This document shows positions 17,409-63,474 of a DNA stretch of 64,000 bases, piece after piece. Position 1 is the first letter of the stretch. Each line of letters opens with the position of its first letter. Source of the stretch: Candidatus Komeilibacteria bacterium. GTDB taxonomy: Bacteria; Patescibacteriota; Patescibacteriia; UBA1558; 2-01-FULL-52-15. Location of the stretch: positions 1,535 through 65,534 of the forward strand of contig JAZDLR010000016.1 of the NCBI GenBank assembly GCA_043801745.1, read 5' to 3'. The position numbers and the translations under genes are program-made. The notes beneath the pieces are model-generated. The model was not told the DNA's origin and did not search any database. It saw nothing but the letters and a program-made list of their open reading frames with translations.

Positions 17409-17861
17409 TCAACGTGTCGTGGTATACACGTACTCTGCCAGTACCAACTCACTTGTGCTGGTCTGGAACGGCAAAGTCAGAGAACTGAGATACAGTTTTT
17501 CGTTGAATGATGACGTTTTCGGCCATCCCTCGAGCATTGCCAGATGACGGAAATAGCCCACCTCAACAGCTGCCTCACTGGGGTACTGGCTGATACTCGT
17601 TGAAATGACGCGGTGACGATCGCCCACCTCATTCACTTCAACGGTATAATGGTAGCCGAACTTATCGACTATTTGGTTGTCATAGCGGCTCTTCAGGGAC
17701 TCCACGCCGCCACGTTTGAAGGTCTGTCTGATTTCCGTCTTCACCAGCTGAAAGCTGATCTGGGATTTGACCCAGCCAGGCACTGTCTGCGGCGCTGCCA
17801 GAAAATCAGCCAGCTGAAGAATCGCCAATATGATTAACAGATACCTTGCCCACGGTTTCAT
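17409..17861 (-). CDS. secreted hypothetical protein
   Basis: Signal peptide MKPWARYLLIILAILQLADFLAAPQ. Confidence 0.45.
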   Translation of the reverse strand: MKPWARYLLIILAILQLADFLAAPQTVPGWVKSQISFQLVKTEIRQTFKRGGVESLKSRYDNQIVDKFGYHYTVEVNEVGDRHRVISTSISQYPSEAAVEVGYFRHLAMLEGWPKTSSFNEKLYLSSLTLPFQTSTSELVLAEYVYTTTR

Positions 17862-17942
17862 CTCTCTGCTCCTTTGTTAGATAACATACAGCCCAATTGC
17901 TGTAATCGCCCAAAATACCATAGAATGCTTGCCGTGTCAATA

Positions 17943-31980: not shown

Positions 31981-32499
31981 CTAACGATAGATCGGGATTC
32001 GTACTTGGGGCCCTTGGAAAGCATCTCGCCCCTTGTCATAGACCGGTAGACACTTTCGGTAGAGTCTCCTGCTCCCATCGGGGCACTCTATCAGAGCAGT
32101 GATGGGATAGCAGGCAAAGGCCTTGTTCGGCTTGACCCGAATCAGGGTGGGCAATGTCTGCTGCTGGGGACCCAGGCGGAACTTGGGCTCATGTACCCAC
32201 TTGTACTCCACCCAGGAGGTGTCGGCGCCGGATCGGGTCCGGCCGTGATGCGGCCGCTCCTCCTGCAGTTCAAACTCATAGGCCAGGCGGACCGACACCG
32301 AACAGCCACAATCGCGTGCCGGTAAACGCTCACCAGTATCCTGATCAACATCGGTTCTGTTCATGACGTTTACGGTCAACCAGTCAGCCCGGTTTTCCGT
32401 AATGTCGCTGGAACTGTGGATCAGGACACTGGTAGAACAGCCTGTCAGCAGCACCAGAGCCGCAAGACAGAAAAGCACAACTACTGGCCAGGATTTCAT
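31981..32499 (-). CDS. lipoprotein (hypothetical), compositionally foreign (high GC)
   Basis: Lipobox LLTGC; local GC content well above neighbours. Confidence 0.5.
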   Translation of the reverse strand: MKSWPVVVLFCLAALVLLTGCSTSVLIHSSSDITENRADWLTVNVMNRTDVDQDTGERLPARDCGCSVSVRLAYEFELQEERPHHGRTRSGADTSWVEYKWVHEPKFRLGPQQQTLPTLIRVKPNKAFACYPITALIECPDGSRRLYRKCLPVYDKGRDAFQGPQVRIPIYR

Positions 32500-32648
32500 A
32501 GCACACCCCTTTCAGAGGGTTTTGGGTTAAAAGCAAGGAAAGGACTAGCTGAATAGTGGAATATACCATATAATATAGCTGCTGTCAACCCCATTAAAAC
32601 ACCCGCCTTTTAATGGGCTAATAGCCCCCTTGTTTATAAACTGTTACA

Positions 32649-38816: not shown

Positions 38817-38848
38817 CCCCGCCCAGAGGGCGGTCGCCCCGTGGGCGA
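38817..38848. repeat. double-hairpin repeat element, copy A (CCGCCC-AGA-GGGCGG / TCGCCC-CGT-GGGCGA)
   Basis: Second copy at 51755-51784 has identical stems and different loops. Confidence 0.7.
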
Positions 38849-46014: not shown

Positions 46015-46574
46015 ACAGCACAAATTAGTAGGACCAGAAGAATTAATAGCCCAAGGAAAAATAGTTGAAAAAATTGCGGCGGATACAACTGAATAATCTT
46101 GTCTGTAGCCGAATCAAACTCCCAATTACCGTTAGGAAAAATAAGCTGGTGAGCCGCTCTAAAGAGCGGCTCAAATTGTATTAGGGTTAGTAATCCCAAC
46201 ATTACAATTACTCCACCAACTGTTAAAAAGCCTGGCTCTAAACTTGAAAAAAATTGCTGCCAGCCAGTCCGGCGTTTTATTACTAGAAACGCCGCACCAA
46301 ATAGCAGAATGGTTAACCAAACAATACATTGTTCATTAACTATCAATCGATCAATGTCTTGAACGTGCCTAAGCTCGTTGGCTGATAAATGAAGTAATTC
46401 TATCTCCGAACCGACACGAAAATGATTTAATAAATACATTCTTTCAGCCCGTAACTGTGGGACCTGTCCTAAATAATCAAAAATCAGCCCGTGCCACCAA
46501 GGATTTAATAGTAAGGCCTGAAGTAGCAACAGTATTGTTACTAGGGCGGTTGCGACGCCAAAAAAATACTTCAT
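45978..46574 (-). CDS. membrane protein (hypothetical)
   Basis: 4 TM helices. Confidence 0.4.
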   Translation of the reverse strand: MKYFFGVATALVTILLLLQALLLNPWWHGLIFDYLGQVPQLRAERMYLLNHFRVGSEIELLHLSANELRHVQDIDRLIVNEQCIVWLTILLFGAAFLVIKRRTGWQQFFSSLEPGFLTVGGVIVMLGLLTLIQFEPLFRAAHQLIFPNGNWEFDSATDKIIQLYPPQFFQLFFLGLLILLVLLICAVYLLDRLFKPRR

Positions 46575-46599
46575 ACTATTACTATATCATGGCCCTATT

Positions 46600-47235
46600 G
46601 ACAAATCTATCGGATTATTAAATACTAATGTTCTGTTCCTTGAGTTATTGGATATTCAGAGACCGTGAACTACTGGCGCCTTGCAATCACCACGACCTCT
46701 CACCAGGTCGTGAAGCTGCGCTAGAATTCGCGGTCTCTCCTTTTTGGCCCTAGGTATCCTGCGATTTCTAACCGGGGGGTTAGACTCTTCTAATCCGTAG
46801 AAAGGAGAAACTACACGTAAGGCCGTCAACGAAACACGTTGGCGGGAAATCCACCTTGTTCCGGTGAGGGAACAAAAAACCATGATTTGCACTAGCACCG
46901 AACGTCAGGAAGACTTCCGGCGGAGAACCTGTACCACCAAGGCGCAAGTTAATCCTCCCTGTGTCTATGGATCGCCCCAGCGGGTCAACTGCCACGGTCT
47001 GGTTGCAGGGTTTACTCCTTGTAAATTTTGCGGCCGGGACATGTACACCGGCAAGACCCGTTCTGACATCCTGAAGGGACTGGAAGAAAAACACGCCCTG
47101 ATGACCGCCCGTTCGGCCCCTAACCTAGCCCAGAGCTAGACGTGCAAATCTCTGAAGCCTCAACCTAGACGGCATCTGGCGTTTCAGAGGCAACAAGTTC
47201 GGGCCCGCTCAGTTTTTTGAGCGGGCCCGTTATAT
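46600..47235 (+). other. GC-rich, hairpin-rich non-coding region (candidate structured ncRNA locus; unassigned)
   Basis: GC far above genome background; overlapping ORFs on both strands; long-range stem 46657-46740 followed by T5; strong terminator 47193-47225. Confidence 0.3.
47193..47230 (+). terminator. intrinsic terminator (GGGCCCGCUC-AGUUUUUU-GAGCGGGCCC then U-rich)
   Basis: 10-bp perfect stem. Confidence 0.6.
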
Positions 47236-48463: not shown

Positions 48464-48530
48464 AGATTAGCTTAAATATTGTCTTAATTTGCTTTCATTA
48501 TACCTGATTGTTGGCTATAATAAAACAACT

Positions 48531-51362
48531 ATGCCCATTTCTCCGCTTCGCCCAGCCTTTCAAACCAAACCCCTAGGATCCACTAATTTCCCTCGGTCTC
48601 CCCGACACCACCGAGGTGGTTTTTGGCGTATCTTTTGGCAACGTATTATACCAATAATTATTCTCTTAACTCTAGTTGGTGGAATTTTTGTGGTTGGTGC
48701 TTTTGTTTGGTATTCGCATGATTTACCAGACCCCAATAAACTAATTGACCGTAGCGTAGCCCAGAGCACAAAAATTTATGATCGCACTGGAGAGCATTTG
48801 CTTTATGAAATCCATGGCACTCAAAGGCGCACCCTAGTTAATCTTGATCAGATTCCTAAATATGCGGTTGAGGCAACTATTGCCATTGAGGACAAAACCT
48901 TTTATGAACACCGGGGCTACAATGTGGCGCGTATTATCAAATCATTATTAATAAATGTTTTAACTGGCCAAAAAGCTCAGGGCGGCTCTACGCTAACACA
49001 ACAATTGGTCAAGAACGCTATCTTAACCACCGAAAAGGCGTATTCCCGAAAAATTAAAGAGTTGGTGCTTTCTTACCGCATAGAACAAAAATTCACCAAG
49101 GATGAAATCTTAAAATTATACTTCAACGAAATCCCTTACGGTTCCACGGCCTATGGTATCGAATCGGCTAGTGGTATCTATTTTGGCAAGTCGGCTAAAG
49201 ATTTAACCCTGGCCGAAGCGGCCGTATTAGCCGCTCTACCTCAAGCTCCGAGCTTCTACTCTCCCTATGGCTCACATAAAGACCAGCTGCTAGAGCGTCA
49301 GCGTTTGGTTTTAAAATTAATGCGGGAGCAGGGATATATTACGGCTGATCAGGAGCGGGCCGCCGCTTCAGAACAGGTTGTTTTTAAAACTAAACGTGAA
49401 GATATTACTGCGCCACACTTTGTCTTTATAGTTAAGGCCGAGCTGGCAGAAAAATACGGCGACCGGATGGTGGAACAGGGTGGTTTAAAAATCACCACAA
49501 CCCTTGATTGGGAGAAACAACAATTAGCCGATGAAACCGTGCAGCAAATTGGCTCTCAGCTGCAAACCAAGTATGGAGCCAACAATGCCAGCTTAGTAAC
49601 AATCGATGTGGTCAGTGGTGATGTCTTGGCTTTGGTTGGATCACGGGATTACTTCGACGACTCTATTGATGGCCAAGTTAACGTAGCGATCCAACCGCGT
49701 CAACCAGGAAGCTCACTCAAGCCTTTTGTTTACGCTCAATTATTTACCAAGGGATTTGGCCCGTCTTCATTACTATTTGACCTAGTAACCTCTTTTGGTT
49801 CTAATGGTGCTGGCGGCGAATACAAACCCCATAATTACGACGGTAAAGAGTATGGTCCGGTTTCTATCCGCCAAGCTTTAGCTGGTTCTCTTAACATTCC
49901 AGCTGTTAAAGCTCTTTACTTGGCTGACCCAGTTAAAGTAATCGAACTGTTAAAAAACTTTGGTTACACCAGCTTTACCGACGCTTCCCGCTATGGCCTG
50001 TCCTTGGTTTTGGGCGGCGGAGAAGTGGAGCTGATAGAGCATACCAATGGCTACGCTGCCCTGGCGCGCGAAGGGGTCTATCAAAAATATTATGATGTTT
50101 TAAAAGTTGAAGATTCAACCGGTCGGGTGTTAGAAGAGAAAGAACAACCCGAACAAAAAAGAATTCTGGAAGCGCAAGTCGTCCGCGAAATTACCAACAT
50201 TCTGTCTGACAATGATGCCCGCGCCTATATTTTTGGTGTGAATAACAATTTAACCCTTGGCGGACGTCCAGTAGCAGCTAAATCCGGAACTACCAACGAC
50301 TATAAAGACTCTTGGCTTATGGGCTATACGCCGCAGTTAGTCACCGGTGTCTGGGTGGGTAATAATAATAATAAGCCCATGAACCAGGCTACTGGTGCCA
50401 ACGCTGCCGGTCCTATCTGGCAAAGCTACATGGCTAAAATTCTAGCCGCTTATCCGGCTGTCGGCTTCACGGCTCCTGAAACAACCGTTTGCGATAAAAT
50501 AATGATTTGCGGCCAATTGGCGCGCGAAGTAACGATTCCTGTTGACCGCGTAACTGGGCAACCGGCCACAGCGGCCACTCCACCGGAAAACATCGAACAG
50601 CGTACCGTTAAAGAGGTTCATGATATCTTACAATACGCAGACAAAAATGATCCGCTCAACCCCTCATATCCGGCCCATCCAGAACAAGATCCTCAGTATG
50701 AAAACTGGGAGGCGCCGGTGCGTAAGTGGGCCCAAACTAATGGTTACGTTAGTAGTCTGCCCAACCAGGGAGTTAATGACCGAATTAAAATCAGTTGGGT
50801 AGAGCCCAGTAATAATGACCAGCTCTCGGGACAGTCAATTCATTTGGCTGTAGGCGCCGACGCTCCTGATGGAATAAGCCGCGCGGATTATTATTTGAAT
50901 AATCAATTTTTAGGCAGCTCATCCAAGCCGCCGTTTGATATTACAGTTAGTCAACAAGCTTCTTGGCCTTCCGGCACTCAATCGTTACGCGCTATTGTCT
51001 ATGATTCTATCGGGGCCAGTAACTCTGCTTCTTTAACGGTTAATATTAGCCAGATGATTATTACTGCGCCAAAAATACAATGGACCAGTCCGCAAAATTA
51101 TACAGTCTATACCACTGAAACTTGGCCCAAGACCATTTCCGCCACACTGGATTCAATCAGCACAGTGGCCAAAATAGATTTCTACTACGTCTTTGGTGAC
51201 CAGACTAATTTTGCCGGCGTTATTGACAAACCCACCTCACCAGTAATTAGTATTCCGTTAAAACAGAATGGCCCCAAGGGAAACTATAAATTCTATTTAA
51301 TTACTACTGACAGCGCTGGCGGAGTACATACCAGCGACAGTATTTCGGCTACTCTTCAATAA
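48531..51362 (+). CDS. class A penicillin-binding protein (transglycosylase/transpeptidase, PBP1A-like)
   Basis: GT51 motifs (EDKTFYEHRG, GGSTLTQQL), transpeptidase SxxK/SxN/SGTT; start at ATG 48531, 9 nt after a TATAAT box (track ORF starts 48489). Confidence 0.85.
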   Translation: MPISPLRPAFQTKPLGSTNFPRSPRHHRGGFWRIFWQRIIPIIILLTLVGGIFVVGAFVWYSHDLPDPNKLIDRSVAQSTKIYDRTGEHLLYEIHGTQRRTLVNLDQIPKYAVEATIAIEDKTFYEHRGYNVARIIKSLLINVLTGQKAQGGSTLTQQLVKNAILTTEKAYSRKIKELVLSYRIEQKFTKDEILKLYFNEIPYGSTAYGIESASGIYFGKSAKDLTLAEAAVLAALPQAPSFYSPYGSHKDQLLERQRLVLKLMREQGYITADQERAAASEQVVFKTKREDITAPHFVFIVKAELAEKYGDRMVEQGGLKITTTLDWEKQQLADETVQQIGSQLQTKYGANNASLVTIDVVSGDVLALVGSRDYFDDSIDGQVNVAIQPRQPGSSLKPFVYAQLFTKGFGPSSLLFDLVTSFGSNGAGGEYKPHNYDGKEYGPVSIRQALAGSLNIPAVKALYLADPVKVIELLKNFGYTSFTDASRYGLSLVLGGGEVELIEHTNGYAALAREGVYQKYYDVLKVEDSTGRVLEEKEQPEQKRILEAQVVREITNILSDNDARAYIFGVNNNLTLGGRPVAAKSGTTNDYKDSWLMGYTPQLVTGVWVGNNNNKPMNQATGANAAGPIWQSYMAKILAAYPAVGFTAPETTVCDKIMICGQLAREVTIPVDRVTGQPATAATPPENIEQRTVKEVHDILQYADKNDPLNPSYPAHPEQDPQYENWEAPVRKWAQTNGYVSSLPNQGVNDRIKISWVEPSNNDQLSGQSIHLAVGADAPDGISRADYYLNNQFLGSSSKPPFDITVSQQASWPSGTQSLRAIVYDSIGASNSASLTVNISQMIITAPKIQWTSPQNYTVYTTETWPKTISATLDSISTVAKIDFYYVFGDQTNFAGVIDKPTSPVISIPLKQNGPKGNYKFYLITTDSAGGVHTSDSISATLQ

Positions 51363-51384: not shown

Positions 51385-51545
51385 GCCCCCGCGAGTAATT
51401 GCGAGGGCCAGGTTGGTGGAACCGGCCGGATTTGCCGCGCCCCGCTGCCTAGCGTCAGCTATGGCGGCCGGGGAACCGACGATCTCCCTGGGGTCAACCA
51501 GAGCGCCTTAAACACTTGGCCACGGTTCCGATATCACGGAAATAA
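51385..51545 (-). other. GC-rich segment co-transcribed downstream of tRNAs, ending in an intrinsic terminator (candidate small ncRNA or processed trailer)
   Basis: Minus-strand terminator CCCUCGC-AAUUACU-CGCGGGGG plus U5 near 51385-51410; about 60% GC, no convincing ORF. Confidence 0.3.
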
Positions 51546-51547
51546 GT

Positions 51548-51652
51548 TGGAGCGGGTGATGGGATTCGAACCCACGACGTCTTCCCGAGGTAAGAGGCAG
51601 ATCACACATACCCCGCCAGAAGAAAGCGCCCTACCTCTGGGCCACACCCGCT
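51548..51652 (-). tRNA. tRNA with ~29-nt insertion in anticodon loop (anticodon CUG/Gln-like if insertion removed at 37/38)
   Basis: Acceptor GCGGGTG/CACCCGC, D-arm GCCC-AGAGGTA-GGGC, T-arm GTGGG-TTCGAAT-CCCAT, CCA encoded; anticodon stem CTTTC/GGAAG interrupted by hairpin GGGGTA...TACCTC. Confidence 0.5.
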
Positions 51653-51666
51653 CTAAAAGAACGAAT

Positions 51667-51743
51667 TGGAGTAGCCAACCGGACTCGAACCGGCAACCTC
51701 CTCACCGAAGGGGTGAGCCGCTCTACCTTTGAGCTATGGCAAC
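51667..51743 (-). tRNA. tRNA-like gene with atypical anticodon loop (CCCUUCG; anticodon unresolved, CUU/UUC-like)
   Basis: Acceptor GTTGCCA/TGGCTAC (one mismatch), D-arm GCTC-AAAGGTA-GAGC, anticodon stem CTCAC/GTGAG, T-arm GCCGG-TTCGAGT-CCGGT, CCA encoded. Confidence 0.45.
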
Positions 51744-51754
51744 ATCTTGTCTTG

Positions 51755-51784
51755 CCGCCCACCGGGCGGTCGCCCTGTGGGCGA
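51755..51784. repeat. double-hairpin repeat element, copy B (CCGCCC-ACC-GGGCGG / TCGCCC-TGT-GGGCGA)
   Basis: Same stems as 38817-38848; sits inside a 40-bp segment flanked by 13-bp direct repeats (51732-51744 and 51785-51797, agctatggcaaca). Confidence 0.7.
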
Positions 51785-52029
51785 AGCTATGGCAACAAAA
51801 AATATCTCTGAAGCCTACCCGCCTATGGTGGGCAGCGACACGAATATAGATATTAATACAACTCAAAATCAGTGTCAATTACTATTACTTGACATTATCT
51901 TAATAATATGATAAAAAATAATGTTCTTTGAAATCATGGGCCTGTTATGGCCTTGTATATATAGAACTCCATACGGAGGTTGCCGACAACGCGTCGGCAT
52001 AGACACAAAACCGCCATGAACCGAGGAGG

Positions 52030-52428
52030 ATGAGTATCGTGGCTAGCAAAACCCTGTATGGAAAGGTGGGGGTGACGCGGCCTAACGAGCCAACACTAAT
52101 AGTGACCACCTTTCGCCTTCACATTGGTGAGGTAGTGAAAAGGCTAGGTCTCTACCCCTCTCCTAACGGGAACGAGTATGTCGTCGACCAACTGCGCGAT
52201 GGCTTGGAGATTAGGATGCCTTCGTCGGCTATTCTTTTTCTCTGCACCATACCAACTCCCTGCGTTATCTATGAGCGTGAGATTTATCTAGGAAAGGATC
52301 ACGGGGAGTCGGGCCCATTCCTCTTGAAAGAGGGCGCACGTTTCATGCGAGGCAACACGAACGACCTCTTCGTGGAAGCTCTTTCATCCTTTTTGCAAGC
52401 TACCACCCCGGACATCAATAACGCTTAG
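52030..52428 (+). CDS. hypothetical protein (high-GC island ORF1; GTG start)
   Basis: GAGGAGG RBS 7 nt upstream; GC about 58-60%. Confidence 0.5.
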   Translation: MSIVASKTLYGKVGVTRPNEPTLIVTTFRLHIGEVVKRLGLYPSPNGNEYVVDQLRDGLEIRMPSSAILFLCTIPTPCVIYEREIYLGKDHGESGPFLLKEGARFMRGNTNDLFVEALSSFLQATTPDINNA

Positions 52429-52477
52429 CGGGCCGAAACCTACCCACCCAAACACAGACATACGACTGGAGGATCTT

Positions 52478-52717
52478 ATGATTTTCGTAGAATTCACCCC
52501 CAAAGAGACTTCTCCCATGAGGCGCAAATACTTTTTCGTCGGCGCCAGTTTGGAGGACGTCCTCGCGGACACAAGCGGTGGTACGGAATTTGGATTCGTC
52601 ACCTTCGCCTCTCACCGCGAGATTTCCGAGGAAGAAGCTCGCAGCCTGAAGCTGGGCTACCTGGACAAGGGCATTCAGGCCGTGAAGAACGGCTGCAAGA
52701 GCTACATGCTGGACTAG
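52478..52717 (+). CDS. hypothetical protein (high-GC island ORF2)
   Basis: GGAGGA RBS; 79 aa acidic protein. Confidence 0.45.
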   Translation: MIFVEFTPKETSPMRRKYFFVGASLEDVLADTSGGTEFGFVTFASHREISEEEARSLKLGYLDKGIQAVKNGCKSYMLD

Positions 52718-52778
52718 GCTTTTAGCGCGCAGACAACTGCGCACACGATCACTAGACCCCCACAGGAGGTAGCAACAC

Positions 52779-53438
52779 ATGAAACGGATCATTCTGATCG
52801 CTCTGCTTGCCTGTCTGTTCGTGATCCCGACGTTCACCACCGTCTGCCTGGCTGCAGATCAGCCGGCAGTCAACACCACCTCCACCGGCCTCACCCCCGA
52901 GGACATCGCGCAGCTGCAGAAGAACGTGACGGCGTTTGCGAAGGTCCTGGGTTTGGCTGACACCACCACCGCCAAGTCCGGGACTCGGCTGTCAATGGCC
53001 GATGTGGCTGACAAGTTCCTGGAGTACTCCAAGGCGGCCATTCTGGCGACTGTCGGTACCATCGAGAAGGTTGCTCCACATGTTTGGGCTGTGTTGGTAC
53101 GACAGCAATACGCCAAAGCTTTCTCTTCGTTGGCAGCCCCAGTCTTCATCTTCATCTTCCTGTTGCTCTTTCGACTGTGGGTCGTGAGGAAGAGGAAGAG
53201 CGTCACTGCGACAGAAAACGACGTACTCGTTGTAGTGAACGGCAACCTCGATCCAGTCGAGATCAAACTGACCGGTTTGGGTCAGTGGGCCAACGTCCTG
53301 GCGCTTCTTGGAATGGTCACTGCAGCCCTGTTCGTGGCAGCACGGATTGCGCCGGCAGTCAGACTCCTGGTCAACCCCGAGTACTATGCGCTCCGCGACC
53401 TCATTCTCCTGCTCCTGAACAAGGGCCAGGGGATGTAG
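52779..53438 (+). CDS. hypothetical membrane/secreted protein (high-GC island ORF3)
   Basis: GGAGG RBS; signal peptide then Thr-rich region and two TM helices. Confidence 0.5.
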   Translation: MKRIILIALLACLFVIPTFTTVCLAADQPAVNTTSTGLTPEDIAQLQKNVTAFAKVLGLADTTTAKSGTRLSMADVADKFLEYSKAAILATVGTIEKVAPHVWAVLVRQQYAKAFSSLAAPVFIFIFLLLFRLWVVRKRKSVTATENDVLVVVNGNLDPVEIKLTGLGQWANVLALLGMVTAALFVAARIAPAVRLLVNPEYYALRDLILLLLNKGQGM

Positions 53439-53468
53439 GTCCTCAACATCCACCACGGACAACAACAA

Positions 53469-53502
53469 ACGCCGGTCGCGCTCTGCGGCCGGCGTCTATT
53501 TT
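53469..53502 (+). terminator. intrinsic terminator closing the high-GC cassette (ACGCCGG ... CCGGCGU plus U-run)
   Basis: GC-rich stem followed by TCTATTTT. Confidence 0.6.
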
Positions 53503-61462: not shown

Positions 61463-62188
61463 ATGAATATTTTAGTAACAATTTTTTATCAGCCACTATT
61501 TAATCTGTTGGTTTGGTTATATAACGTTATTCCCGGACATGACATGGGAGTTACAATTATTGCTTTGACAGTGATTATTCGTTTGATTCTATATCCTCTG
61601 GCCCAGAGGGCTATTGTTTCGCAGCGGGCTATGCAAACCTTACAACCCAAGATCGATCAGTTACGCGAAGAGCTCAAGAATGACAAAGAGAAACTGTCAA
61701 AGGAGTTGATGGAGCTGTACAAGCGGGAGAAGATTAATCCGGTATCGTCTTGCTTGCCGGTGTTGATTCAATTACCCTTCCTTTTCGCCTTATTTGCCGT
61801 GTTCAATAGCGGTTTGAATAATGGTGGCTTTGAGTTGCTTTATCCTTTTGTGAAGAACCCGGGGTCGCTAAACACCATGGCTTTTGGTTTCTTTGACTTA
61901 GTTCAGAAAAACATACCCCTGGCAGTAATCACCGGTATTTTACAGTTTGTGCAAACTAAAATGTTAATGGTGAGCAATAAAAATAAAACCATGGGCACCA
62001 GTACTATGACCAAAGCCATGAATCAGCAGATGCTCTACATGATGCCGATCTTTACTATAATTATTGGCGCTTCTTTAGCGGCCGGTATAACCCTTTATTG
62101 GTTAATTACAACCCTATTTTCTATTGGGCAACAATATTTTTTGTTGCGGCACAAACCACCAACTTCAACACCAGAGATCATTGGTTAA
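61463..62188 (+). CDS. yidC: YidC/Oxa1-family membrane protein insertase (short form)
   Basis: 5-TM core with PLAQRAIVSQRAMQTLQPKIDQLRE and LPxLIQLPFLFALF motifs. Confidence 0.8.
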   Translation: MNILVTIFYQPLFNLLVWLYNVIPGHDMGVTIIALTVIIRLILYPLAQRAIVSQRAMQTLQPKIDQLREELKNDKEKLSKELMELYKREKINPVSSCLPVLIQLPFLFALFAVFNSGLNNGGFELLYPFVKNPGSLNTMAFGFFDLVQKNIPLAVITGILQFVQTKMLMVSNKNKTMGTSTMTKAMNQQMLYMMPIFTIIIGASLAAGITLYWLITTLFSIGQQYFLLRHKPPTSTPEIIG

Positions 62189-62264
62189 TGTTGGGGTCCC
62201 GCTCGCGGGGGTAATTTTAAAATTACGCATTCTCTGGAATTCGTCATCTGGGATAGTCTGAAAA

Positions 62265-62573
62265 AAGAGAACGCCACGGTCGAATGATCGTGGCGTTTTG
62301 ACGCAAGGTCCGCACAAGCCGCAGATGGGCAAGATGGGCGAAACCCGCAGATGATATAACCTTATTGGCTTTTTGCCGGCACCATAGGGGGCTATCCCCC
62401 ACAGGTACCGCGTCACCCCCTTTATCGAAGTATCGGGGGCTTGCTCGCCCACTGGGCGACGGCAGGGTTGGGGCACATTGGCCCCGTTAGCCGAGGAGAC
62501 ACTCGTCGGACCGCTGAGCTCTAGCGGCCAAACAGGCGTTTCCTTTCTAAACCCTCGATCCCTGGGCGTCCCC
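62265..62573 (-). other. GC-rich structured non-coding region; tentative tmRNA-like element
   Basis: Minus strand begins GGGGACGCCCAGGGAUCGAGGG (resembles tmRNA 5' GGGGCUGAUUCUGGAUUCGACGGG); 3' side has hairpin CCACG-AUCAUUCGAC-CGUGG then CGUUCUC that can pair with the 5' end; no tag ORF identified. Confidence 0.2.
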
Positions 62574-62733
62574 TGGGATCAATGTACTAATAACCTTTTA
62601 TCATATATATAAAATTGTGTCAACCCCGAAAACCGAAGTAAATTAAAATAATGGCTAGTTTTGGCCAATTTAGGTGCTAATCATACTATGTTTGAGTGTT
62701 CGGGTCCCAAGTTGCAAGCCACAAGTCCCCTCT

Positions 62734-63474
62734 TCAAAAACTCCTTTGACTGCCAACAATGATTTTTAAGCGGCCGGGGGCGATTTCAATGCTGGCTGGG
62801 GTTTTCATGACCAGCTGTTCGTCAGTAACAATAGACACCGGTTCGCCGACCAGGCTATTGATCATTAGTTTCTTAAACGGCAAAACCGTGGATTTTAAGG
62901 GGTGACCACCGGAAAGCCAGCCAGAACGCCAGGGCGTAATCACGGCCTCCATAATACCATCAGTCGGATCACAATGAATCGCCTCATGACTAAAATTACA
63001 CAGTTGAATGGTATGACGTTCGGTTGTTGGTGCAATCTGAAAAGAATCACACAATAATGATACCGGAGCGTTTACTACTTCGGCTGAATGCATAAAATAC
63101 TGATTATTAATGCGGCCCAAGTCTAATTTTTTAATTATCCTACCAGAGACAACCTCACAAGCCAGCTCGCGTGGCGGCACGCCAAGAATTTTGGCAATTT
63201 TACTTTTGTCATCTACTGGTATAATACCCAAAACCACATCGAGATCAGCCACAACATTGATAACCTTGGCAAAGGTTTGGTCATCACCAATGGCCACCAC
63301 AGTTTTTACTCCGTCTTTAACAGCATCAGCAATCAACTCTTTTAAATTTTTGAGAATAGATAAACGGGCGATGCGGCCTTTAATATCCAGGTCAGTAACG
63401 CGCTGCTCAACCCTGGCCAGAAGGGTGGCGTATTTGGGCTGATTTAAAAAAGAGTCGTAAATGTACAGATACAT
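62734..63474 (-). CDS. diacylglycerol-kinase-family lipid kinase (YegS/BmrU-like)
   Basis: DAGK_cat-like VVAIGDDQTF (GGDGT variant) and downstream GIIPVD region. Confidence 0.55.
   Translation of the reverse strand: MYLYIYDSFLNQPKYATLLARVEQRVTDLDIKGRIARLSILKNLKELIADAVKDGVKTVVAIGDDQTFAKVINVVADLDVVLGIIPVDDKSKIAKILGVPPRELACEVVSGRIIKKLDLGRINNQYFMHSAEVVNAPVSLLCDSFQIAPTTERHTIQLCNFSHEAIHCDPTDGIMEAVITPWRSGWLSGGHPLKSTVLPFKKLMINSLVGEPVSIVTDEQLVMKTPASIEIAPGRLKIIVGSQRSF

Follow-up and report, generated by a model that had tools for sequence, protein, structure and literature searches.

The 545-nt gap between yidC and a convergent lipid-kinase-like gene in a Candidatus Komeilibacteria genome is read here, with a probability of about one half, as the site of an orphan, independently transcribed and structured non-coding RNA (~327 nt) that lies on a lineage-specific insertion of ~500 bp. 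The segment is an insertion without coding signal, its minus strand has a strong predicted fold between promoter- and terminator-type sequence signals, and it matches no described RNA family. Transcription from its own promoter is predicted from these signals, and that the RNA is functional is a further inference. The DNA available to the analysis was one 64 kb stretch (referred to below as the window), with a mean GC content of 44%, and the positions given are those of this stretch. The source lineage belongs to the CPR/Patescibacteria, which have small genomes and a non-coding RNA content that is almost unexplored.

The inserted segment at the yidC-kinase site

The gap lies in the gene order dnaA (-), rpmH, rnpA, yidD, yidC (+), gap, kinase-like gene (-) and bactofilin gene (-). 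The genes for YidC and the DAG/lipid-kinase-like protein are convergent, and both are intact. The features that define the locus are as follows.

61463-62188, plus strand: yidC
62189-62733: gap between yidC and the kinase gene, 545 nt
62189-62200: left copy of a direct repeat, TGTTGGGGTCCC, one base past the yidC stop codon
62194-62226, plus strand: yidC hairpin of terminator type, TCCCGCTCGCGGGG then GTAATTTTAA, with the perfect palindrome GTAATTTTAAAATTAC after it (terminator scan)
62624-62696: spacer separating the promoter from the right repeat, AT-rich and unstructured; belongs to the inserted segment
62697-62708: right copy of the direct repeat, TGTTCGGGTCCC, matching 62189-62200 at 11 of 12 positions
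62734-63474, minus strand: DAG/lipid-kinase-like gene

The loci of relatives were fetched via homologs of YidC and of the kinase. In nine relatives with 56-86% identical YidC or kinase (loci L001/L002, L003, L004-L007, L016, L018/L019, L041, L044 and L046), the two genes are separated by 1-130 nt, against 545 nt here, and in the closest insert-free relatives the whole gap measures only 40 nt (L016) or 45 nt (L041). The distance from the right repeat copy (62697) to the stop codon of the kinase gene is 37 nt, which matches the whole gap of the insert-free loci. When the first 60 nt of the gap were compared with its last 60 nt, a match as good as 11/12 was obtained in 30 of 5000 shuffles (p about 0.006). 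No terminal inverted repeats were seen on reading the ends defined by the direct repeat, no ORF for a transposase, integrase or recombinase is present in the segment, and the element occurs as a single copy within the 64 kb window. On this comparison of sequences, and with a GC content of 59% against 44% for the window, the ~500 bp segment (roughly 62201-62696) is an insertion between yidC and the kinase gene that is found in this lineage only.

The closest relative (loci L008-L014; kinase 89% and YidC 81% identical) contains an unrelated insert of ~1.5 kb at the same site, and no similarity was found between this insert and the element. The sister insert ends in an RNA-like unit of ~210 nt, which lies between a promoter and a terminator and has the same orientation as the element; its positions are as follows.

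L010, 5020-5250, plus strand of the locus: RNA-like unit of the sister insert
L008, 985-1225, minus strand: RNA-like unit of the sister insert

This unit has a TTGACA promoter, a terminator that it shares with yidC and a fold with z = -7.2, and no Rfam family was found for it. Its two variants differ at seven positions, including one compensatory change from U-A to C-G in a hairpin. The sister insert also holds an ORF of 268-299 aa (L010 4078-4977, plus strand) with two predicted membrane segments and no match in Pfam, PHROG, PADLOC or NCBIfam. In another relative (L043), a pilin-like gene and a second ORF occupy the same site. Since the contents of the site differ between the relatives, the site is variable and the element in the window is specific to its lineage.

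Transcription signals, predicted fold and coding potential

Within the insertion, a promoter-like site and an intrinsic terminator on one strand bracket the non-coding segment, the promoter being a sequence prediction. The promoter was used to place the 5' end of the candidate RNA (~62588), and the U-run to place its 3' end.

62262-62588, minus strand: candidate non-coding RNA, ~327 nt, 59% GC (ends predicted, fold computed)
62595-62623, minus strand: promoter-like site, TTGACA at 62623-62618 followed by TAAAAG at 62600-62595
62557-62580, minus strand: 5' hairpin GAUCCC-A-GGG-GACG-CCC-A-GGGAUC, which holds the GGGGACG read as a tmRNA acceptor strand
62446-62458: hairpin CGCCC-ACT-GGGCG, one of five copies in the window, found as a double hairpin elsewhere
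62303-62353: tandem repeat of ~26 nt in two copies with 76% identity, on the RNA strand CAUCUGCGG...CUUGC
62261-62297, minus strand: intrinsic terminator of the candidate RNA, with the stem AACGCCACG/CGUGGCGUU, an inner 2-bp extension, CUC and UUUUUU

The two hexamers of the promoter-like site are separated by a 17-nt spacer with TG at -15/-14, as in an extended -10 promoter. The -10 hexamer TAAAAG is without the usual conserved T at position 6, and a promoter scan omitted the site for this reason. The underlying pattern, TTGACA-N14-TGnTA, occurs four times in the window compared with an expectation of 0.12.

17916-17940, minus strand: upstream of a secreted protein at 17860
32564-32588, minus strand: upstream of a lipoprotein at 32499
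51889-51913, plus strand: upstream of a GC-rich island, whose first gene is at 52030
62599-62623, minus strand: upstream of the RNA candidate

Each of the other three sites is followed after ~55-120 nt by a plausible small gene in matching orientation. All four precede DNA of 51-59% GC (genome 44%), and the four units may represent a class of acquired cassettes with strong promoters. At the opposite end of the candidate RNA, the only matches to Rfam at E<=10 in a 391-nt region were the terminator portions of two sRNA models, on the minus strand. No terminator was found between the kinase gene and the element (62585-62745, minus strand), and read-through from the kinase gene into the element is therefore also possible. 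This stretch of ~160 nt is AT-rich, with a folding z-score of +1.9.

The sequence-only reading had described the region as GC-rich and strongly folding, which is borne out: the core of the element has 56-65% GC in 100-nt windows against 44% in the whole window, and the minus strand (62588-62262) has a minimum free energy of -147.9 kcal/mol with z = -4.6, none of 100 dinucleotide shuffles folding as well. In the predicted minus-strand fold, the 5' hairpin and the terminator are accompanied by four short hairpins with GC clamps and by a single long, branched domain. Two alternative partners are available to GGCGUUCUCUUU (62275-62264), the 3' half of the terminator: a local AACGCC and AAAGGAAACGCC at 62546-62535. 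Pairing with the latter, read from complementarity, would close the whole domain. In a scan of 330-nt windows over the 64 kb, which used few shuffles (15 per window), the background had a mean z of -0.7 (sd 1.35) and the element a z of about -5, which is among the most negative of the sampled windows and not uniquely extreme. The plus strand of the element folds almost equally well (-142.7 kcal/mol, z of -3.4 to -3.9), and the G:U counts of 12 and 9 do not separate the strands. As both strands fold similarly and the G:U counts are uninformative, the hairpins could be palindromes at the DNA level.

In the same coarse scan, with its 15 shuffles only, two other segments gave unusually strong folds: 46401-46730 (minus strand) with z = -4.8, similar to the element, and 49601-49930 (minus strand) with z = -6.1, which is the opposite strand of a long ORF at 48489-51362 (plus strand).

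Stop codons are scarce in the region, as had been stated, and one minus-strand frame is open for 137 codons (103-137 codons, from 62578 or 62476 to 62165). A protein-coding gene or pseudogene in this frame would account for its length, which is considerable given the composition, and for a GGGG located 5 nt upstream of a GTG at 62476. However, the GC contents of the three codon positions are flat (0.57-0.64 in all six frames of the element), whereas real GC-rich genes of the window have GC2 of 0.39-0.46 and GC3 of 0.59-0.74, so that the codon-position periodicity of a gene is absent. In addition, a six-frame search of the element gave no match in Pfam or PHROG, and a search of the 137-aa translation against 1.84 billion representative proteins found no relative save a tandem-repeat artefact (P0241). 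The frame also crosses the terminator hairpin and its U-run and overlaps the end of yidC. The coding reading was rejected on the flat GC1/2/3, the empty six-frame searches and the want of a true homolog, and its probability is very small.

Comparison with described RNA classes

The region had been tentatively assigned to a tmRNA (ssrA) gene in the sequence-only reading, and the sequence features on which this assignment was based are present. The minus strand from 62573 reads GGGGACGCCCAGGGAUCGAGGGUUUAGAAAGGAAACGCC (starting GGGGACGCC...), the hairpin AACGCCACG...CGUGGCGUU is located at 62297-62270 on the minus strand, and CGUUCUC at 62273-62267 can form seven pairs, two of them G:U, with GGGGACG, followed by six U at 62266-62261. 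A tmRNA, in one piece or permuted, would thus find a suitable size (~330 nt), a GGGG start and a possible 7-bp pairing of its ends. The resemblance of the 5' end to tmRNA is nevertheless at chance level, since 881 of the 63,958 42-nt windows (1.4%) of the same sequence score at least as well against the 5' 37 nt of E. coli ssrA. Moreover, GGGGACG is buried in the local 6+3-bp hairpin at 62580-62557, which sequesters the 5' strand and leaves no free acceptor strand. A T arm (5-bp stem and 7-nt T-loop of the GUUCRANYC type) is absent on reading; the 3' hairpin is instead a terminator stem of 9+2 bp (11 bp) with a 4-nt loop, followed by CUCUUUUUU, and no CCA is encoded. A tag-peptide frame with a resume codon, which the sequence-only reading had already missed, is not reported by ARAGORN, and in the possible 7-bp stem G3 would pair with C and not with U70.

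The two database checks that had been suggested for the tmRNA were both negative. ARAGORN found no tmRNA in the region at the default, 95% or 80% thresholds, and in the whole window it found three tRNAs and zero tmRNAs; only at a 60% threshold were spurious permuted 'pseudogene' tmRNA calls returned on the region. In Rfam 15, tRNAs alone were found in the window at gathering thresholds. When the filters were relaxed and matches up to E = 10 were admitted, regions of 901 and 391 nt around the element gave no match to the tmRNA clan, or to any RNase P, SRP, 6S, intron or riboswitch family. The relatives' site is furthermore empty, and an essential single-copy gene would need to have moved here. 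On ARAGORN, Rfam (gathering and E<=10) and the chance-level 5' similarity, the tmRNA was rejected, and its remaining probability is negligible. What holds from the earlier interpretation is a structured, non-coding and probably minus-strand RNA.

RNase P or 6S RNA, which had been offered as a fallback, fares no better: there is no Rfam match at E<=10, and the locus is absent in relatives. RNase P RNA has the conserved motifs CR-I (GGAAAGUCC) and CR-V (ACAGAA), neither of which was seen on reading the element. A loose resemblance of GGAAACGCC to GGAAAGUCC was discarded, since ACAGAA and the P4 partners are lacking, Rfam gives no match and the synteny excludes an RNase P gene. SRP RNA was rejected together with 6S and RNase P on the same Rfam search and on the 1-130 nt gap of the nine relatives. 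Because a lineage-specific insertion is absent from relatives, an essential single-copy housekeeping RNA (tmRNA, RNase P, SRP) is not expected there, and the element is not a housekeeping RNA.

Group I introns are numerous in Patescibacteria; some have diverged so far that RF00028 or ARAGORN misses them, and some occur in 'unknown loci' (PMC13011429). The element was therefore compared with divergent group I introns and with other mobile RNAs, either ribozymes or guide RNAs (omega RNA, bridge RNA, for example): there is this precedent for introns that escape the models, and the size of the element, its GC-richness and its insertion would suit. However, RF00028, HEARO and the other models give no match at E<=10, tRNA exons are absent in the ARAGORN intron search, and no host gene is interrupted. 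On either strand, the P, Q, R and S core elements known from two Patescibacteria tRNA-Asn introns (PMC13011429, Table S3) are missing or stand in the wrong order. For a mobile-element RNA, no TnpB, IscB, IS110 or reverse-transcriptase gene is adjacent. Such an RNA is thus very unlikely here. Two tRNA-related candidates were also dropped: an intron-bearing tRNA is not found at the element by ARAGORN with introns of up to 600 nt, and a tRNA-Ser call at the 70% threshold is noise, with 199 such calls across the 64 kb.

Several other observations were made in the window. At 51551-51651 (minus strand), a tRNA that scores 51.7 bits in Rfam has an insertion of ~29-33 nt in its anticodon loop, and the ARAGORN intron search reports it as tRNA-Gln(CUG) with a 29-nt intron; such an insertion is unusual in a bacterium and much too short to be a group I intron. 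In a 116-nt tRNA-like sequence at 51414-51529 (minus strand), GGAACCG and CGGUUCC form a 7-bp acceptor pairing, the ACCA end is encoded and the D arm (GCCAAGUGUUUAAGGC) is class-II-like; a terminator follows at 51409-51375. The sequence is called neither by ARAGORN nor by the Rfam tRNA model (E<=1), and may be either a tRNA-like element or a tRNA that carries an insertion. The double hairpin CCGCCC-NNN-GGGCGG-T-CGCCC-NNN-GGGCG occurs in two copies on the plus strand (38818-38847 and 51754-51783), one in the 5' region of a YebC-like gene and the other beside the 5' end of tRNA-Lys. The latter sits between two copies of AGCTATGGCAAC (51731-51742 and 51787-51798) and, judged from this arrangement, looks like a small insertion with a target duplication. 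Adjoining the tRNA cluster is a GC-rich island (51950-53500, 55% GC or more) with three small ORFs that have strong GGAGG ribosome-binding sites. Its 219-aa ORF (52779-53438) matches the membrane protein PHROG 1486 (4.7e-12), and the island is probably a prophage or mobile-element remnant.

Relatives of the element itself were sought in several collections. Blastn against phage and plasmid collections gave no relative, and nhmmer detected no homolog in any of the 48 fetched loci or elsewhere in the window. A search of viral contigs with four k-mers of the element returned one random 19-mer match only, while metagenome contigs (two 19-20-mers) and GTDB genomes (one 18-mer) gave random matches of 18-21 nt, none of which extended. 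No copy of the element was located near a viral relative of the GC-island protein. The absence of homologs is partly a limit of sampling, as the organism was seen once in the protein collection and the scans need exact words; zero homologs from these near-exact-word scans also means zero support from covariation or conservation.

Interpretation and comparison with known systems

In the preferred reading, a segment of ~500 bp would have entered the short spacer of the convergent yidC and kinase genes in a single Komeilibacteria lineage. The segment would be a self-contained minus-strand transcription unit consisting of a sigma-70-type promoter with an extended -10, an RNA and a Rho-independent terminator, and the GC-rich RNA of ~327 nt, which is without coding signal, would adopt a compact multi-hairpin fold. 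The site also hosts cargo in sister lineages, including another structured RNA-like unit, which speaks for this reading. Against it stand the absent homologs, the imperfect -10 hexamer, the similar fold of the plus strand and the kinase gene that is without a terminator.

A serious rival, and the main one, is a non-functional remnant: decayed, GC-rich and palindrome-rich foreign DNA (a REP/BIME-like sequence or a fragment of a mobile element) that would persist between the convergent genes and at most supply the kinase gene with a 3' UTR and a terminator. A 3' UTR of the DAG-kinase-like gene had also been a fallback of the sequence-only reading, and it keeps some probability, as no terminator was found between that gene and the element. 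The single copy without detected homologs, the nearly equal folding of both strands and the internal tandem duplication would all be expected of such a remnant. So would the short hairpins made of G and C only, of which CGCCCNNNGGGCG occurs in five copies in the window against 0.06 expected, and other GC-rich foreign DNA is present in the window at 51950-53500, with its PHROG membrane-protein match. However, on one and the same strand the element is directly preceded by a complete promoter of the enriched type and directly followed by a good terminator, the z-score of -4.6 is beyond the expectation from composition, and the whole unit is unrepeated, unlike the usual REP clusters; in the REP/BIME test the 13-nt hairpin type was found five times in 64 kb, whereas the whole element was unique in the window. 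The remnant is regarded as a possible, though not the favoured, explanation.

A more far-reaching interpretation of the independently transcribed RNA is that it belongs to an undescribed class of RNA-only accessory cassettes in CPR, each of ~500 bp, with a 12-bp direct repeat, a strong promoter of its own, a fold-dependent RNA of ~330 nt (a ribozyme, a protein sponge or a defence-related RNA) and a terminator. Insertion would then occur at a variable site near the gene cluster of the replication origin, and the sister unit would be a second example. This proposal is speculative and improbable. For the element as such, the most likely role would be that of an accessory, horizontally acquired structured RNA that acts via its fold, for example by binding protein or RNA.

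If it is functional, such a well folded accessory RNA (327 nt), brought in on an insertion, would point to new RNA biology in CPR, and the yidC-kinase spacer, next to dnaA, would be a landing site for RNA genes. As a single-sequence orphan, the RNA candidate is of moderate to low interest until homologs or transcripts become available. The practical value at present is that of negative evidence: to annotate the element as the tmRNA, RNase P, SRP or 6S gene of the genome would be an error.

The element shares features with several known systems. With tmRNA (ssrA; Rfam clan CL00001: RF00023 and RF01849-RF01851) it has in common a length of ~330 nt, a GGGG-initial segment and a 7-bp complementarity of the 5' and 3' ends; it differs in having no T-loop, CCA, G3:U70 pair or tag ORF, and in being a lineage-specific insertion, whereas tmRNA has a conserved locus. 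Like the element, the group I introns described in Patescibacteria (Nakagawa et al., 2026; PMC13011429) are GC-rich, structured RNA insertions of ~200-350 nt in reduced CPR genomes and are missed by standard annotation, but the element interrupts no gene and has no flanking exon and no P/Q/R/S core. Orphan HEARO and omega RNAs (of IscB and TnpB) are also structured, GC-rich RNAs of a few hundred nucleotides that arrive by insertion; the element, in contrast, has no HEARO match in Rfam and no adjacent nuclease or transposase gene, and is present in a single copy. REP/BIME clusters resemble it in their short GC-rich hairpins between convergent genes and in the recurrence of one hairpin type elsewhere, whereas in the element the 330-nt unit is unrepeated, the hairpins are heterogeneous, and a promoter and a terminator are present. 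Compared with typical base-pairing sRNAs, the element, known here from its sequence alone, is much longer (327 nt) and more structured. With strain-specific sRNA genes in variable intergenic islands, it shares a stand-alone promoter and terminator, the lack of an ORF, horizontal acquisition and absence from close relatives.
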